A DNA stretch of 64,000 bases from a virus. The notes under the pieces are model-generated. The model had not been told where the DNA came from. It saw only the letters and a list, made by a program, of their open reading frames with translations, and did no database searches. Positions 3,226 through 61,012 of this stretch are shown one piece after another; the first letter of the stretch is position 1, and every line of letters starts with the position of its first letter. Both the position numbers and the translations under genes were made by a program. The stretch is from positions 64,001 to 128,000 of the IMG/VR virus record IMGVR_UViG_3300044634_004833; one strand, written 5' to 3'.

Positions 3226-4123
3226 TAAAGTTGATTTTGAGATCAACGAAAACAATTTTAAATATTGGATTACTGGAGACTTCAACGAAACTTCTTATGG
3301 CGAAGAAATAGAATCAGAAATACCAGACGCAGAAGAATTTGCAAAGAAAAAAGTTTTAATTCAAAAAGATATAAACAAGGTCGCTCCTGAAATACGGCAG
3401 TTTTATACTGAGCCACTTCTTACGAAAAAACAAGAGTTTCATATTTTTAGAAAAATGAATTTCTATAAATATAAAATGAAACTTAATTTTGATACTTACA
3501 AGCAAACTGGAATAAACAATTTTGAAAAAATATGTATTGATTATTTTTGTAAATATCAAGAAACTAGAAACTTTATTGCTACTTGCAATACTCGTTTAAC
3601 TGCTCAAGTTATTAAAAAAAGAAAAGATTATTATGGAGAAAATATAAACGATTTAATAAGCGATTGTTTATTTAATATTATGAAAGCAATAGATGGATTT
3701 GATTACACAAGAGGTTTTAAATTTTCAACTTATTGTACATGGGTTTTAATGAACAATTCTTTGAGAGACCATTCTCATGACAAAAAGTTTTATGATAAAA
3801 TTGCAACGAATATTGACAATTCTACTTTTTCAAACAAATTAGATGAAAAACAATATGAAAATGTATCTCAAGTTGAAAAAGATGAAAGCATAAATTATGA
3901 TGTTTTAAAAGTTTTAAATCTTATTAAACAAAGAGATTGCAGAGAACACTTTGTTATTATCCATTGTTTTGGTCTGCTTGGCAAAAGTAAAAAAACACTA
4001 AAGGAAATATCAGCGGAACTTAACTTAACAAAAGAAAGAGTTCGGCAGATTCGTGAAAATGGAGTTAAGTTTATCAAGGATCAAATAAAAGACGGTAAAC
4101 TTAATTTAATTTCTTTAAGCTAG
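3215..4123 (+). CDS. RNA polymerase sigma-70 family factor
   Basis: Region 2 KAIDGFDYTRGFKFSTYCTW; region 4 KTLKEISAELNLTKERVRQI; PLLTxxQExHIFRKMN segment. Confidence 0.92.
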   Translation: MNIDKVDFEINENNFKYWITGDFNETSYGEEIESEIPDAEEFAKKKVLIQKDINKVAPEIRQFYTEPLLTKKQEFHIFRKMNFYKYKMKLNFDTYKQTGINNFEKICIDYFCKYQETRNFIATCNTRLTAQVIKKRKDYYGENINDLISDCLFNIMKAIDGFDYTRGFKFSTYCTWVLMNNSLRDHSHDKKFYDKIATNIDNSTFSNKLDEKQYENVSQVEKDESINYDVLKVLNLIKQRDCREHFVIIHCFGLLGKSKKTLKEISAELNLTKERVRQIRENGVKFIKDQIKDGKLNLISLS

Positions 4124-4263
4124 CCCACAACTGCGGGCTGGAATCAAGACATTCAACCGCCATGTTTTTTATGGTGGGAGAGCTTCTTTTTTTTCATTTC
4201 TTTTGAATCTCTTATTTTTATCCACTCTACAAATTTAATTGGTTTGTTTGGTTTTTGTTCCAT
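4120..4263 (-). CDS. small basic peptide with in-frame TGA codons (candidate selenoprotein): MEQKPNKPIKFVEWIKIRDSKEMKKKKLSHHKKHGG-TGA-MS-TGA-FQPAVVG
   Basis: SD GGAG; third gene of a minus-strand late operon; TGA at 4155-4153 and 4146-4144; SECIS-like hairpin 4139-4122; not in the ORF track. Confidence 0.5.
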
Positions 4264-39881: not shown

Positions 39882-39955
39882 GCTCCCGTAGCTCAACTGG
39901 ATAGAGCAACAGATTTCTACTCTGTAGGTTGCTGATTCGACTTCAGCCGGGAGCA
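39882..39955 (+). tRNA. trnR: tRNA-Arg (anticodon TCT), no encoded CCA
   Basis: Acceptor gctcccg/cgggagc; D arm gctc/gagc; anticodon arm acaga-ttTCTac-tctgt; T arm gctga-ttcgact-tcagc. Confidence 0.92.
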
Positions 39956-55305: not shown

Positions 55306-58300
55306 ATGGACTACAAATTTGAATTGCCAAAACAAGCACCTAATGTTGATTTGGATCCTATTAAAATTAATGGTAAATCATTACAAATTACTGGATACAT
55401 AGAAACTGTAGATCCATTTGGAAATGTAAAAATATCAGTGCCCAAAGACGGCCAAAGATTTAACGATACACCACAGAATTTGGCGGATGTAATGGGAGCA
55501 ATAAATCCCACTCCAACACATTATATTCTTTATAATGGTACTCAAGGTTTGACAGATTATCAGCTTCAATTAGGAACAGAACAATCTTATGCATATGATC
55601 CTGTAATTACATATACAACAGATGGGGATTATAAAGTAAAAGTTATAACATGTGCAGATGCAGAAGGAATTAATAAAATAATATATAATAGTTCATTAGT
55701 ACCAGAAAAGTGTTTGTTTGATGCTCTGTCAGATGTAGTAGATTTAGGATACAAATTAAGACTTATGAGTCCAGATTATGCTTCTGCAGGAGCAACAACC
55801 GAACTTATATGTGAATATTTTCTTTTTAGAGGATATTCTTTTTCTGTTAAAAGTACAGTTGACGTATGGATTACCACTAGTCAGTTTGCCAGTTCTTGGA
55901 TTTATCCTGGCCCCAACCCAAATAAACCTACAAGATTTTTAAACAAACCAAGTGTTTTGCCACAAGGCGCAACAACTACTACTACCACAACAACTACTTC
56001 TACCACTACTACTACAACATCGGCTCCAATTTCAACCTCAACTACAACGACAGCGGCTCCGGGTGCTGGTGGCAGACTGCCTCTTCCCGGCAATTCTTTG
56101 TCTTATAACGGTGTCACTCTTACAGGCTCTGGTTCAGGTAGTAATTATGCAGCACCATTTACCTATTGTTCAGTATCCATGCCTGCTAATTCTATGATTC
56201 TTGGAAATGCTGGAAGTGGTACTTATACGCTTACATTCTCTTTGCCTGTAAACAATATTCAAATTTTAGGATCAGGTCAAAATTTTGGAGAAACCTTTAC
56301 ATTTTCAGTCAATAATGGCACATTAACCACAAGTCTAATGCCAGGAATTGGTTGCAATGCCACTTTAACTGGAAATACTGTAGGTAATTCCAGCGTTGGT
56401 TCTTTTGGAGCAACGCTAGCATCAACATCAGATTACACATCTTTGTCTATAACATTCCCCGGCGGTGGCGGCGGCACATTGTTCTCAGTTATAGAAAGCT
56501 CTGTTGTTTCTGGAGCAACCACAACTACACCTGTTCCAACAACCACAACAACTACTACACCTGCGCCTACTACAACTACACCTGTTCCAACAACCACTAC
56601 CACTCCAGCACCTGCAGTTTCTACTGGATTGCCATTAATTGGAACCTCTTCTGTTATAAATGGTGTTACATTAACGGCATCTGGCGTTGGAACTTCTTAT
56701 TCAAGCCCTTGGTCAAGCTGCTCTCCTCCTATCTCAATTACTGCACCTTGCTTGTTCTTGGGAAGAGCCATTGGAACATATACTGTTTCATTTGATTCAT
56801 TACAGAATGATATAGTAATTTTTGCAAACGCTAGTGACACAGGAGAAAGCTTTGACTTTGGAGTAGACTCAGGAACACTAAGCATTAGTGTTGTTCAAAG
56901 CTGCGGAGTAACAGTATCTGGAACAACAGTTTCTAGCGTTGGAGCAAATGTTGGATGGGTCATAAGGCTCACAAGCACAACTCCATACTCTCAAATAACA
57001 ATATATTCTGGTGCTGTAACATCTGGAAGCCTTTTTGGAATTTATGCAAGCTCAATAGTTCCAGGTGCAGTAGTAACAACTACAACGCCAATTCCAACAA
57101 CTACTACAACCACAACTACTACAACCACTCCCGAACCAACAACAACCACCACTACTACTACACCTGCTCCAACGACCACTACAACCACAACTACTACAAC
57201 TACAACCACTACAACTACAACCACTACAACAACTACAACTACGCCCGCACCAGACCAAGCATATTCATTGTTTGGATGGGGAGAAGGTAACCTAGGAAAT
57301 AATCGTTCTGCTGGAGCCCAATCGCCAACTCAAACAGTTTCTGGCGGAACAAATTGGGGAACACCTCCAAAATGCTCTTATGCACAACACTATGCCATAT
57401 TGAAGAAGGATGCAACACTCTGGGCATGGGGCACTAATAGTGCAGGAGAACTTGGTAATAACACAACAACAAATAGAAGTTCTCCTATTCAAATTGCTGC
57501 CCCCGCAGGAGTTACATGGAATGCTGTAAATATGGGATATCAAACCACATTTGTTATAGACACAACCGGCGCATTGTGGGGATGGGGCAAAAATAACTTT
57601 GGGCAGTTGGGCATTAGCACTACAATAAATGTAAGCTCTCCTGTTCAGATCAGCGCCGATACAACATGGAGTTCTATTGTAGCAGGCAATTTTGCTACTT
57701 ATGCAATTAAGAAAAATGGAACTTTATGGGCATTTGGATACAATGTACAAGGACAAATCGGAGATGGAACAATAGTAAACAAAAGCAGCCCAGTTCAAAT
57801 TGGCTCTGACACCACATGGTCACAAATAACTGCTGGTCAAGGACACGCATTATCAATTAAATCAGATGGAACTTTGTGGGCATGGGGAGCAGGGTCTAAC
57901 GGTTCCCTTGGAAATGGTACAATAACACATAGAAGTAGCCCCATTCAAATAGGAACTGATAATACATGGTCTTTAATACAATCAACTGGATTTGGCGGAG
58001 CAGCTTTGAAAACAGATGGAAGCCTATGGTGCTGGGGCGGAAATACAAATGGCGCTCTAGGAGATGGAACAACAGTTCACAGAAGTAGCCCAATTCAAAT
58101 AGGATCTGATACAAATTGGACAGATATCGCTGGAGGACAGTATTCTGTAGTTGCACTAAAATCAGACAAATCCTTATGGCATTGGGGCTATGGTGGAGCA
58201 ATGGGCATAGGTGTAAACTCTGCCAGAAGCTCTCCAGTTCAGACATTAAAAGCAGATACCTTATGGATTTCAATAGGCAGCAGCTTAAGAAACTTCTTCT

Positions 58301-59562
58301 GCATTAGAGGTGTTACAACAACAACGACAACTACAACACCAGCACCTACAACTACAACACCAGCACCTACAACTACAACACCAGCACCTACAACGACAAC
58401 GACAACACCAGCACCTACAACGACAACACCAGCACCTACAACGACAACACCAGCACCTACAACTACAACACCAGCACCTACAACTACAACACCAGCACCT
58501 ACAACCACTCCTGCTCCAGCAGGAGGAAGTGGATTGTGGGCATGGGGATTCAACTCTTATGGAATGCTTGGAGATGGGACAGTTGAAAGCAGAAGTAGCC
58601 CAGTGCAAATGTTGACATCATCATTTAATGATATTGCAGATGGCGGATACGCTCAACATGGTGCTGCTGTAAAAGCAGATGGAACTCTTTGGATATGGGG
58701 CAACAATAGCTACGGACAGCTAGGGGATGGAACAACTGTGGCTAAAAGTTCGCCTACTCAAGTTGGAACTGAAAATACTTGGGATGAAGTAGTCAAGGGA
58801 CTCAACACCGCTGCTTCTAAAACAGATGGAAGTTTATGGGGCTGGGGAGGAAACGCATATGGACAACTTGGCATAGGAACAAAAATAAATGTTAGCTCTC
58901 CTGTTCAAATTATGGGCGCATCATCTGGATATTATGATATTACAATATCTGCTGCAAATGCAGCCGTAATAAAGAAAGATGGGACTTTATGGGCATGGGG
59001 ACCTAACAATGATGGAATTTTGGGCACTAATGATAAAATACACAGATCGTCTCCAGTACAAATAGGTTCTGATACAACATGGAGAAATGTTACTTTTACA
59101 GCCTACTCTATGTGTGCAATTAAGTCTGATGGCACTTTATGGAGCTGTGGAAACGGATACAGCGGAGTAACAGGTTTAAATAATACTTTAAACTATAGCT
59201 CCCCAACTCAAATAGGAACAGATAATACATGGAGCTATGTTTTTGCAACCTACTTATTAGTACACGCAATAAAGAACGATGGTTCTCTATGGGTTTGGGG
59301 ACAAGGAGGAGCATCAGAATCTGGAATTACTCGTAGCAGTCCAACTCAGGTAATAACAGGAAAATCATTCAGCAAAGTTGTTTCTGGTATGGCTACCTCT
59401 GCTGGATTGACTACTGATGGAAAACTATGGGCATGGGGACAAAATGCATATGGCTCAATGGGAGAGGCCGCATCTAGTGCCAGTCCAGTAATGTTATTCT
59501 CCGATACCACATGGTCTGATATTTCAGCAATCGCTGCTGGATTCCACGCCACAAAAGCATAG
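55306..59562 (+). CDS. large RCC1/BLIP-II repeat protein with Thr/Pro-rich linkers (putative fibre/adhesin)
   Basis: Two blocks of DGTLWAWG.N..G.LG....RSSPVQ repeats; poly-T/TTTPAP linkers; two beta-rich paralogous domains. Confidence 0.85.
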   Translation: MDYKFELPKQAPNVDLDPIKINGKSLQITGYIETVDPFGNVKISVPKDGQRFNDTPQNLADVMGAINPTPTHYILYNGTQGLTDYQLQLGTEQSYAYDPVITYTTDGDYKVKVITCADAEGINKIIYNSSLVPEKCLFDALSDVVDLGYKLRLMSPDYASAGATTELICEYFLFRGYSFSVKSTVDVWITTSQFASSWIYPGPNPNKPTRFLNKPSVLPQGATTTTTTTTTSTTTTTTSAPISTSTTTTAAPGAGGRLPLPGNSLSYNGVTLTGSGSGSNYAAPFTYCSVSMPANSMILGNAGSGTYTLTFSLPVNNIQILGSGQNFGETFTFSVNNGTLTTSLMPGIGCNATLTGNTVGNSSVGSFGATLASTSDYTSLSITFPGGGGGTLFSVIESSVVSGATTTTPVPTTTTTTTPAPTTTTPVPTTTTTPAPAVSTGLPLIGTSSVINGVTLTASGVGTSYSSPWSSCSPPISITAPCLFLGRAIGTYTVSFDSLQNDIVIFANASDTGESFDFGVDSGTLSISVVQSCGVTVSGTTVSSVGANVGWVIRLTSTTPYSQITIYSGAVTSGSLFGIYASSIVPGAVVTTTTPIPTTTTTTTTTTTPEPTTTTTTTTPAPTTTTTTTTTTTTTTTTTTTTTTTTPAPDQAYSLFGWGEGNLGNNRSAGAQSPTQTVSGGTNWGTPPKCSYAQHYAILKKDATLWAWGTNSAGELGNNTTTNRSSPIQIAAPAGVTWNAVNMGYQTTFVIDTTGALWGWGKNNFGQLGISTTINVSSPVQISADTTWSSIVAGNFATYAIKKNGTLWAFGYNVQGQIGDGTIVNKSSPVQIGSDTTWSQITAGQGHALSIKSDGTLWAWGAGSNGSLGNGTITHRSSPIQIGTDNTWSLIQSTGFGGAALKTDGSLWCWGGNTNGALGDGTTVHRSSPIQIGSDTNWTDIAGGQYSVVALKSDKSLWHWGYGGAMGIGVNSARSSPVQTLKADTLWISIGSSLRNFFCIRGVTTTTTTTTPAPTTTTPAPTTTTPAPTTTTTTPAPTTTTPAPTTTTPAPTTTTPAPTTTTPAPTTTPAPAGGSGLWAWGFNSYGMLGDGTVESRSSPVQMLTSSFNDIADGGYAQHGAAVKADGTLWIWGNNSYGQLGDGTTVAKSSPTQVGTENTWDEVVKGLNTAASKTDGSLWGWGGNAYGQLGIGTKINVSSPVQIMGASSGYYDITISAANAAVIKKDGTLWAWGPNNDGILGTNDKIHRSSPVQIGSDTTWRNVTFTAYSMCAIKSDGTLWSCGNGYSGVTGLNNTLNYSSPTQIGTDNTWSYVFATYLLVHAIKNDGSLWVWGQGGASESGITRSSPTQVITGKSFSKVVSGMATSAGLTTDGKLWAWGQNAYGSMGEAASSASPVMLFSDTTWSDISAIAAGFHATKA
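58327..58506 (+). repeat. imperfect 21-bp tandem repeat (TTTPAPT)
   Basis: acaactacaacaccagcacct units; related Thr tracts near 55970-56075, 56515-56615 and 57075-57250. Confidence 0.85.
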
Positions 59563-59569
59563 CCTTTAG

Positions 59570-59598
59570 CTCCCGCATGAAATTCATGCGGGAGTTTT
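59570..59598 (+). terminator. intrinsic terminator
   Basis: ctcccgcatga-aat-tcatgcgggag-tttt after the RCC1 gene. Confidence 0.75.
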
Positions 59599-59648
59599 AG
59601 TTACAATTTTTTTGATTTGCCCCTATCATTTGGGCAGGAGATCAAAAC

Positions 59649-60245
59649 ATGCTTAGAACTACGATTCTTTCTTTTTTAGTGTTTTTAATTATGGTTAGCG
59701 ATCCAACCATTGCGAAAGCTGGTTGAGGCGCACCAAGCTTGCCCCGGTCGGGGTATATGCCAATTCAAATCACACAAACTCAATTAGAAATACTTGAAAT
59801 AGATAGAAAAGCAAGAGCTATTGCTCATACTATGTACGCTGAAAACAATGAAGAACAAATAGAACTATCTGTCAAAAGCTCCGATAAAATACATCGTATT
59901 GCTGCCGTTTTTTATTATCAACAAAAAATGGACCCTAATCCATGTTTGCTTAATCTTCTTGCAGATCAAGATCCATTAGTTGTTGAAGCAGCACATATCG
60001 CATGTATTATTATTGCAAACAATAAAAAACACAAAGATTTTAACAAGTATCCCAAAGGACATTTAATCGACTTTGGACCTTGGTTAAATAGACTCAACAA
60101 CCAAAGCGAAGGCACAGGAGCCAGACAAGAAGCTATTGATATGTGGCAATCCCACTTTGATAAAATACTTAAAAACAAAAAAGAAATTGAAGATAAGCCA
60201 AAAGAAGAAAAGAAAAGTGTAGAAGAAATTCTTAGAATTAAATGA
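59649..60245 (+). CDS. secreted HEAT-like repeat protein with in-frame TGA (candidate selenoprotein, Sec26)
   Basis: Promoter-like CCCC-TATCAT, SD AGGAG, ATG 59649, signal peptide ending AKA, TGA 59724-59726 in frame with the 59739 ORF, SECIS-like hairpin 59740-59755. Confidence 0.72.
59740..59755 (+). promoter_or_regulatory. bacterial SECIS-like element
   Basis: tgcccc-GGTC-ggggta; 19 nt separate the TGA from the loop. Confidence 0.65.
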
Positions 60246-60249
60246 AGAC

Positions 60250-60285
60250 AAAAAAGTACCCCGGTGTTAACCGGGGTACTTTTTT
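60250..60285. terminator. bidirectional intrinsic terminator
   Basis: aaaaaagtaccccggt-gtta-accggggtactttttt between convergent genes. Confidence 0.88.
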
Positions 60286-60292
60286 GTTGCGA

Positions 60293-61012
60293 TCAAGGAC
60301 CTGTTTTAATTACTCCCTTTGTTGATTCTAAGCCATCTATGTTTAAATCCATAAATAAATTATCTTTAGAAAATTTAGCAACTTTAATTTGCTTTTGGCC
60401 ATTTACATATGAAACATAACTTGTAAGTTGTATGGAATTTCCATTTTGATCCAAACTTGTATCTAATCCCATAGGCATTCCCTCATAGCCTCTTCCATTA
60501 GCTATTTGGCTTGAACTAAGACCAGCTTGTGTTTTTAAACCACCAGCCTTGGGAACACACATTCCTGGCATTTTCTGACCTACAAATGTGCCAACAAATG
60601 GTTCTATTGAAGTCCCGCCAGGAATCTGATCGTTAGCACCAGCATCTTGTGTAACATCAACTGTGGTAGGAGGAAGACATAAACAATCACCACAATTTGC
60701 ATCACAATTCCAATCAGATCCACTCCATGTGCATGTGCATGTGCCTTTGCAAGGAGGAGAATTAGTTAAATAAGGATAAGGAGGAGGTGGTGTAGTAATA
60801 ACTCCCGGTGTTGTAGGTGGCGTAGTTGTTACCATAGGTGGCGTAGTTGTCACCATAGGAGGTGTTGTTGTCACCATAGGTGTTGTTGTTGGAGCCATAG
60901 GTGTTGTTGTTGGAGCCGCCGTTGTTCCAAGAGGAGGCGAAGTTGTTGGAGCATCTGTTGTGCCTCCACCTGGACCTACTGTTGTTACTGCTTGCCCGTG
61001 AACATAACTCAT
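60293..61012 (-). CDS. Thr/Pro-rich protein with a Cys-rich module
   Basis: (VTTTPPM)n repeats; CKGTCTCTWSGSDWNCDANCGDCLCLPP. Confidence 0.7.
   Translation of the reverse strand: MSYVHGQAVTTVGPGGGTTDAPTTSPPLGTTAAPTTTPMAPTTTPMVTTTPPMVTTTPPMVTTTPPTTPGVITTPPPPYPYLTNSPPCKGTCTCTWSGSDWNCDANCGDCLCLPPTTVDVTQDAGANDQIPGGTSIEPFVGTFVGQKMPGMCVPKAGGLKTQAGLSSSQIANGRGYEGMPMGLDTSLDQNGNSIQLTSYVSYVNGQKQIKVAKFSKDNLFMDLNIDGLESTKGVIKTGP

Follow-up and report, generated by a model that had tools for sequence, protein, structure and literature searches.

The window analysed here is a 64,000-nucleotide stretch of viral DNA, bases 64001-128000 of the 154,941-bp IMG/VR virus record IMGVR_UViG_3300044634_004833, which has a G+C content (GC) of ~33% and is estimated to be 31% complete. 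A called open reading frame (ORF) at 59739-60245 continues upstream, without a change of frame, through a TGA codon to an ATG. This raises the question of whether the TGA ends translation or is decoded as selenocysteine (Sec), as an earlier note on this DNA had proposed for an exported phage protein. We observed the TGA at the same codon in all family loci with readable upstream DNA, together with a positionally conserved hairpin that fits the bacterial consensus for a selenocysteine insertion sequence (SECIS) element. These features support the earlier proposal, and we put the probability that the phage gene is a genuine bacterial-type selenoprotein gene at roughly 0.78.

Direct reading of the locus confirmed the starting observations. 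The called ORF begins at a TTG (59739) that has no Shine-Dalgarno (SD) sequence, and upstream of it an SD, the ATG at 59649, a signal peptide, a Gly codon and the TGA follow one another as described in the earlier note. The ATG, 24 leader codons, a GGT, the TGA at 59724-26 and the called ORF 59739-60245 share a single frame. Gly25 (GGT) stands directly before the TGA and G-A-P-S-L-P-R-S-G-Y after it, and 172 codons separate the in-frame TGA from the terminal TGA at 60243-45. The complete precursor would be 198 residues long.

A protein search of 5.8 billion proteins returned 16 relatives. All of these database proteins are without a leader, because the gene callers stopped at the TGA, and several begin with L/M-P-R-S-G, just 3' of the stop. 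We read the underlying DNA at 14 loci: the window, L016, L002/L012, L004, L006, L007, L011, L015, L013, L014, L037, L039 and L040. L004 is identical over the region read to L005 and L008-L010, and the 14 loci amount to ~12 distinct sequences. They come from separate assemblies with GC contents of 35-69%, and their identity to the window protein falls from 87% to ~25-32%. The aligned codon is TGA in 14/14 loci; a sense codon, be it Trp or any other, occurs in none of the members with readable upstream DNA. Elsewhere relatives were scarce: a pattern scan of IMG/VR viral contigs found none, tblastn of the protein against INPHARED phage genomes gave no match, and the GTDB species genomes held only one, a 271-kb phage contig inside a metagenome-assembled genome (MAG).

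The architecture around the TGA is common to the family and consists of an ATG, a hydrophobic leader mostly ending K-A-K-A-G, the TGA, G/K-x-P and the domain. The more divergent junctions read A-E-A-G-TGA-G-K-P in L037, F-G-G-N-TGA-K-A-P in L039 and R-G-G-TGA-G-K-G-P in L040. An SD-like purine-rich run precedes the ATG in 10 of the 12 tabulated loci, two of the start coordinates being mis-set. Leaders vary among homologues in sequence and length, the length always by whole codons, and synonymous variation begins right after the TGA, at Gly (GGC/GGT/GGG/GGA) and Pro (CCA/CCC/CCT). Between the mature parts of the window gene and its closest homologue, L016 (87% identity), there are 37 synonymous and 16 non-synonymous codon differences. 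The gene is under purifying selection both 5' and 3' of the UGA. Because of the whole-codon leader differences, the synonymous changes and the L016 comparison, a sequence error, a pseudogene or a separate downstream start is very unlikely.

The hairpin 3' of the TGA was found where the earlier note had placed it, at 59740-59755 with its first loop G at position 23. It has a 6-bp stem (-8.8 kcal/mol; -13.3 kcal/mol for a 45-nt fold). Numbering from the U of the UGA puts the first loop G at base 23, and the spacing from UGA to loop is 19 nt. At 13 of the 14 loci there is a hairpin with 5 or more bp and a loop that begins +20 to +28 from that U, and 11 of the 14 additionally have GU in the loop and a folding free energy (dG) of -6.5 or below. 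The rate at which such structures arise by chance, scored per position for at least 5 bp, dG <= -6.5 and a 3-5 nt loop containing GU that starts at +20 to +28, is 0.14% in the window, 0.3% in L013, 1% in L014 and 0.1% in L039. When all TGAs with an open frame on both sides were scanned across the 155-kb record, this gene was the only convincing hairpin site. In bacteria the SECIS consensus is a 3-9 nt loop with a G in its first two positions, a 4-16 bp stem, a UGA-loop spacing of 16-37 nt and a minimum free energy of -7.5 kcal/mol or below (PMC13188914). The window element agrees with this bSECIS consensus on all four counts (PMC13188914).

Most stems are of the form GCCCC/GGGGC, and four lineages differ: L014 has GCCUCA-GUA-UGAGGC, L013 has GCUGGC-CGUGU-GUCAGC, L039 has ACGCCUU-GGUC-AAGGCGU and L015 has GCCCUGAC-CCG-GUCAGGGC. 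The peptides encoded at the hairpin vary as well (LPRSG, PPQYEA, PAGRVS, PRLGQG), and in these four lineages a different stem, encoding a different peptide, occupies the position of the common one. When the sequences are aligned on the loop, its G is identical in 14/14 loci and the next U is present in >90%; pair-preserving double changes occur in all three inner pairs. Positional conservation of the hairpin is strong and covariation suggestive.

A profile search of 1.84 billion representatives gave 37 relatives, and one group among them, ~25% identical and with a core hhalign probability of 99.6%, has no TGA. In this group the linker that joins the leader to the first helix contains one or two Cys; in P0041/L041 this linker reads leader-A-V-G-C-G...C-S-P-T-R-S-S-Y, the window counterpart being A-K-A-G-U-G. 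The linker cannot be aligned with confidence, and positional equivalence of Cys and Sec is at best plausible. In every Sec-type member a cysteine sits at or adjoining position 99. It is invariant in A1 and A3, is found in P0019, P0020 and P0026, and is absent from 8/8 Cys-type relatives. Because of this co-occurrence of Sec and Cys99, we propose a possible selenenylsulfide between Sec26 and Cys99. Separately, L007 (442-447) has a Cys directly after the Sec codon (G-U-C-K-P), which makes an adjacent Sec-Cys pair.

Several results weigh against a selenoprotein gene. In a shuffle covariation test on the gapless alignment, 87-146 of 500 shuffles reached the observed values, which is not significant, given the small number of sequences and a register that shifts among loops of 3, 4 and 5 nt. 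On whether the hairpin covaries, a check suggested in the earlier note, the pair-keeping double changes and the shuffle test differ. Most members share a CCCC/GGGG stem that the conserved LPRSG peptide would also yield, L040 forms only a weak 4-bp hairpin, the L037 loop contains GGGC, and L015 folds in a shifted register. Rfam gave no family at gathering thresholds, with chance-level matches near the hairpin. The profile alignment to the TGA-less relatives spans the core and not the linker that holds Cys or Sec. No selA, selB, selD or tRNA-Sec was found on the 155-kb record or the 271-kb relative contig. The MAG into which that contig is binned, assigned to 'Acidimicrobiaceae', does carry selA, selB, tRNA-Sec and a Sec-containing selD, but its GC is 70% and that of the contig 36%. 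The z-scores from folding individual sequences do not stand out (-0.2 for the window). Since neither the shuffle test nor the z-scores lend weight, the argument for a SECIS rests on position and cross-lineage conservation.

The main rival, which we consider improbable, is programmed readthrough of the UGA without Sec. Here the hairpin would hinder termination, a near-cognate Trp, Cys or Arg tRNA would decode the UGA, and the products would be a mixture of leader and full-length protein. Any form of recoding would account for a conserved UGA that is flanked by coding sequence, no Sec machinery could be linked to the phage, and the formal covariation is weak. However, a loop G in 14/14 and a U in >90%, placed 19-24 nt after the UGA, correspond to the SelB-binding consensus and not to a generic roadblock. 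The UGA-less relatives carry Cys, the residue that Sec replaces, and the Sec-type members all keep Cys99. Readthrough should also be indifferent to the identity of the residue, yet a sense codon is found in no member.

Slightly less probable again is a pair of separate products, a leader peptide ending at the TGA and a cytoplasmic HEAT-like protein started from TTG 59739 or ATG 59757 by reinitiation or at an internal start. This is the reading of every gene caller, and a TTG or ATG follows soon after the TGA in several members. Against it, no SD precedes 59739, and the TTG of the window is CTA in L016, which is not a start codon. The next start in L016 comes 6 codons later, yet the G-A-P-K-L-P-R-S-G-Y before it is conserved as protein. 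Across members the first possible start after the TGA shifts while the frame is never broken, and there are synonymous codon changes between the TGA and those starts. A free 25-residue signal peptide ending A-K-A-G would, moreover, have no evident reason to exist in every lineage.

Stop-codon recoding occurs in some large phages, and just 31% of this genome is in hand, so we weighed a changed code or a phage or host suppressor tRNA through which TGA would specify a standard amino acid. TGA nevertheless ends 45 of the 153 long ORFs of this genome (29%) and, in the 271-kb relative, 81 of 275, and it is the family gene's own terminal stop in 8 loci, including this gene directly before its terminator. 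No tRNA-Sec, suppressor tRNA or tRNA with a UCA anticodon was found on the 155-kb record or the 271-kb relative. The family also spans contigs of very different GC, one of them with ordinary bacterial genes. Recoding of TGA is site-specific, and a changed code is very improbable. Finally, a nonsense mutation, pseudogene or assembly error, which a single in-frame stop in one sequence would resemble, is refuted by the comparative data: ~12 distinct sequences, assembled independently, share the TGA at this codon, and the comparison with L016 shows purifying selection.

With Sec insertion as the preferred reading, the unit at 59600-60287 would be one gene for the 198-residue precursor. Ribosomes would initiate at ATG 59649 and produce a signal peptide for the Sec translocon (of the secretion pathway). 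At UGA 59724, selenocysteine would be inserted in place of termination, with the hairpin at 59740-59755 acting as a SECIS that recruits host SelB-GTP-Sec-tRNA(Sec). The host would provide SelA, SelB, SelD and tRNA-Sec; from the lack of sel genes on 155 and 271 kb of phage DNA we infer that the phage uses the host machinery. Signal peptidase I would then cleave after A-K-A, and the exported protein would begin Gly-Sec-Gly on a flexible tail of a small HEAT-like helical domain. In the most speculative step, Sec26 and Cys99 may form a selenenylsulfide redox pair or latch.

By simple descriptors, the window leader fits a signal peptide of the Sec translocon that signal peptidase I would cleave (positive n-region, hydrophobic h-region, small residues at -3 and -1), with a maximum Kyte-Doolittle 9-residue mean of 3.27 and Ala at -3 and -1. 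Most homologue leaders fit the same descriptors; L039 and L040 carry other residues at -3/-1, and two homologue leaders are without charge in the first 6 residues. A lipoprotein, with Sec standing for the lipidated Cys, was considered and rejected. A lipobox, L-[AS]-[GA]-C, has a hydrophobic residue at -3, and here that residue is charged (Lys or Glu): K-A-G-U predominates among the members, and L002 and L037 have E-A-G-U. An AlphaFold2 model has a mean predicted local distance difference test score (pLDDT) of 76, rising above 90 in the core. Its helical core spans ~43-140 and 152-181, and the N-terminal tail, where the Sec would lie, is disordered.

The evidence for the HEAT-like domain named in the earlier note is weak. 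Pfam HEAT/HEAT_2 models matched 9-10 of 20 family members with best E values of 0.003-0.04, all sub-threshold, and structural neighbours are generic alpha-solenoids or helical repeats (Z <= 8.7 by VIA-align), the range of any helical repeat; no match exceeded a threshold. Foldseek against the PDB found no match at E <= 0.001, NCBIfam 20.0 gave three isolated matches at E >= 0.013 and none above cut-off for 20 members, and no PHROGs or PADLOC family model matched the protein. The protein thus resembles bacterial HEAT/HEAT_2/PBS-lyase-type repeat proteins in its weak Pfam matches and alpha-solenoid neighbours. Since these matches are sub-threshold and Z <= 8.7 is typical of any helical repeat, no function is inferred from them. 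In many members the C-terminal tail has the form K-K-S-x-x-E-I-L-G-[IV]-[EK]-stop (window 60195-60242; also P0020, P0023, P0025, P0027, P0030, P0039 and P0045); it recalls the first residues of a J-domain, yet nothing comes after it. A second group of relatives ends D-D-S-I-P-G-[FM]-K-I-K-R.

The coordinates of the gene are collected in Table 1. The upstream RCC1 ORF ends at 59562, and the unit between both terminator hairpins is a self-contained gene. The promoter-like site of the earlier note is present in the sequence, and 9/12 matches of this kind are no more frequent in the window than in shuffles (4 found, 3.7 expected). The motif GCCCCTA also lies 5' of the L016 gene. On the plus strand, the preceding gene (55306-59562) encodes a 1418-residue RCC1-repeat protein interrupted by long Thr and Pro-Thr linkers. 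The following gene (60293-61012, minus strand) encodes a protein of 239 residues, rich in Pro and Thr over its N-terminal half and in Cys in the middle region. Both flanking proteins look like surface or host-contact proteins.

Table 1. Positions in the window of the candidate selenoprotein gene and its flanking signals.
Feature	Position	Strand	Remark
Terminator hairpin of the RCC1 gene (10-bp stem, 5-nt loop, T-run)	59570..59598	+	5' limit of the unit
Promoter-like GTTACA-18-TATCAT, preceded by CCCC	59600..59629	+	9/12 match
Shine-Dalgarno AGGAG, 8 nt 5' of the ATG	59636..59640	+	Read from the sequence
Predicted signal peptide, codons 1-24: MLRTTILSFLVFLIMVSDPTIAKA	59649..59720	+	MLR n-region, 13-residue hydrophobic core, A-K-A end
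In-frame TGA, proposed Sec codon: residue 26, predicted mature residue 2 (G-U-G)	59724..59726	+	
SECIS-type apical hairpin UGCCCC-GGUC-GGGGUA	59740..59755 (loop 59746-59749)	+	
Predicted mature protein G25-K198: Sec-bearing flexible tail, helical HEAT-like core (~43-181), Lys-rich C-terminus EILRIK	59721..60242	+	
Cys99 codon TGT, proposed partner of Sec26	59943..59945	+	
Own stop codon, likewise TGA	60243..60245	+	
Two-way intrinsic terminator: perfect 18-bp hairpin flanked by A-run and T-run	60248..60287	.	

We next considered the carrier of the gene. Pfam models for capsid (Gp23) and terminase matched nothing in the 155-kb fragment, and the 271-kb relative contig likewise gave no terminase. 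Across 87% of its length the 155-kb record is collinear with that 36% GC contig, at ~76% nucleotide identity, and L016 (G001:C1:78279-88872) lies on it (contig C1, L047-L060). Among the genes on the contig are those for a tail sheath (phrog_23, E 1.7e-73), DnaB, ribonucleotide reductase, SbcC and HNH endonucleases. The GMP reductase of the window clusters with Uroviricota proteins. On the basis of the collinear tail-sheath contig and the Uroviricota-like GMP reductase, the carrier is a myovirus-like jumbo phage. The statement of the earlier note that the protein is phage-encoded thus holds for this gene, while the family is not confined to phages. In L009, bacterial MFS and SDR genes adjoin the family gene. 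In the GC-rich contigs L015 (298-5974) and L006 (11-4576), the Sec gene is fourth in a tight run, after genes for an unknown protein (504 and 296 residues, respectively), a Tubulin_2-like protein and a ~690-residue VWA_2 protein. A staphylococcal-nuclease gene follows the Sec gene in L015, where the Sec gene overlaps each neighbour through its start or stop codon, and in L037 a nuclease and a TIR protein adjoin it. The surroundings in L015, L006 and L037 may represent a conflict-system neighbourhood.

The host is less readily assigned. Given the 34-point GC gap, we rejected the 'Acidimicrobiaceae' MAG as host evidence; the gap makes a binning artefact or contamination the probable explanation of the link between contig and MAG, which is at best one of co-abundance. 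A helicase query against INPHARED gave only distant matches with mixed hosts and no host clue. The tRNAs of this phage are Arg-UCU and Thr-UGU (window 39882-39955), and the relative contig has six: Asn, Leu-UAA, Ile-UAU, Met, Thr-UGU and Tyr (L048, L049). These phage tRNAs mainly read A/U-ending codons, as expected if the GC of the host exceeds that of the phage.

A second candidate Sec site lies elsewhere in the window. A small ORF of ~37 codons (4120-4263, minus strand), unrelated to the main gene, has a K-F-x-E-W-[IV]-K-I-R motif and ends H-G-G-TGA-M-S-TGA, the first TGA being at 4153-4155 on the minus strand. The AGUU loop of the hairpin that follows occupies +24 to +27, the same distance as in the main gene. 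The relative phage matches the window at all 21 nt surrounding the two TGAs, against 73% identity in the flanks. Its ORF is conserved in frame upstream, whereas conservation of the frame is lost past the second TGA. The stem changes with compensation, from AGCCCGC/GUGGGCU in the window to UGCCAC/GUGGCA in the relative, with the AGUU loop kept. The H-G-G-TGA-M-S-TGA ORF resembles the 'UXX-star' class of selenoproteins (PMC13188914), and by its sequence looks like a candidate selenopeptide of that type. If so, one phage carries two independent Sec sites of equal geometry. Outside the window, at record positions 154277 (plus) and 37819 (minus), TGAs with 19/23 and 27/32 open codons have a GU-loop hairpin at +23 to +29, which may be due to chance.

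Beyond the bare claim of a selenoprotein gene, we lean towards a fuller picture: an uncatalogued exported selenoprotein family, with Sec at mature residue 2 paired with a Cys on a HEAT-like domain, that would be spread by jumbo phages and mobile DNA, with this phage carrying at least two Sec genes (the main gene and that at 4153 on the minus strand) and relying on a Sec-decoding host. Sec decoding is generally regarded as a cellular trait. If translation of this gene needs host SelA, SelB, SelD and tRNA-Sec as well as selenium, phages can exploit a rare machinery; the Sec codon would then be a marker for host prediction, and expression would be coupled to selenium supply. The family would also add an unusual design, with Sec beside the signal-peptide cleavage site and on a non-thioredoxin fold. 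Standard gene calling removes both the export signal and the Sec from every member, leaving headless, apparently cytoplasmic proteins in the databases.

In E. coli fdhF the SECIS loop has the sequence AGGUCU. The window element shares with it the core loop GGUC and a G23 in the loop. The minimal fdhF SECIS is a 17-nt hairpin that starts 11 nt after the UGA; its U17 is bulged and its loop contains G23/U24 (PMC8659212). In contrast to this strict form, the window element has no bulged U17 and carries its U at 25, not 24. Pairing between positions 17-22 and 27-32 is perfect, and 13 nt separate the UGA from the start of the hairpin. As in bacterial genes with a SelB-bound SECIS, a conserved in-frame UGA is directly followed by a stem-loop within the coding sequence, and as in bacterial SECIS elements the small loop has G-G/U as its first bases, the spacing is 19 nt and the stability is below -7.5 kcal/mol. 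Unlike bacterial selenoprotein genes, the window gene is phage-borne and has its proposed Sec 26 codons in, right behind the predicted signal peptide.

No description of a phage selenoprotein turned up in full-text searches of the literature. In a 2026 inventory of 119 prokaryotic selenoprotein families the word 'phage' is absent, and no HEAT-like exported family is among those listed (PMC13188914). The closest parallels there are the exported DsbA-like, DsbG-like and thiol:disulfide interchange selenoproteins, which likewise combine Sec with an export signal and with which the window protein would share a probable Sec-Cys redox or metal-binding role (PMC13188914). The Dsb-type proteins have a thioredoxin fold with UxxC or CxxU motifs (PMC13188914), whereas the window protein has a HEAT-like repeat, G-U-G-x-P at its predicted mature N-terminus and its candidate Cys 73 residues away. 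Among viruses, the selenoprotein genes named in a review are only those of poxviruses, a GPx1-like gene in molluscum contagiosum virus and a GPx4-like gene in fowlpox virus (PMC8310308). These, too, are viral genes that depend on the Sec machinery of the cell, and the fowlpox SECIS likewise lies in the coding region (PMC8310308). The poxvirus genes are captured cellular GPx genes with eukaryotic SECIS elements, whereas the phage gene has a bacterial-type SECIS and encodes a protein without a known cellular enzyme counterpart. In conclusion, the mechanism of Sec insertion is most likely of a known kind, while the carrier, the protein family and the position of Sec at the mature N-terminus are most likely new.

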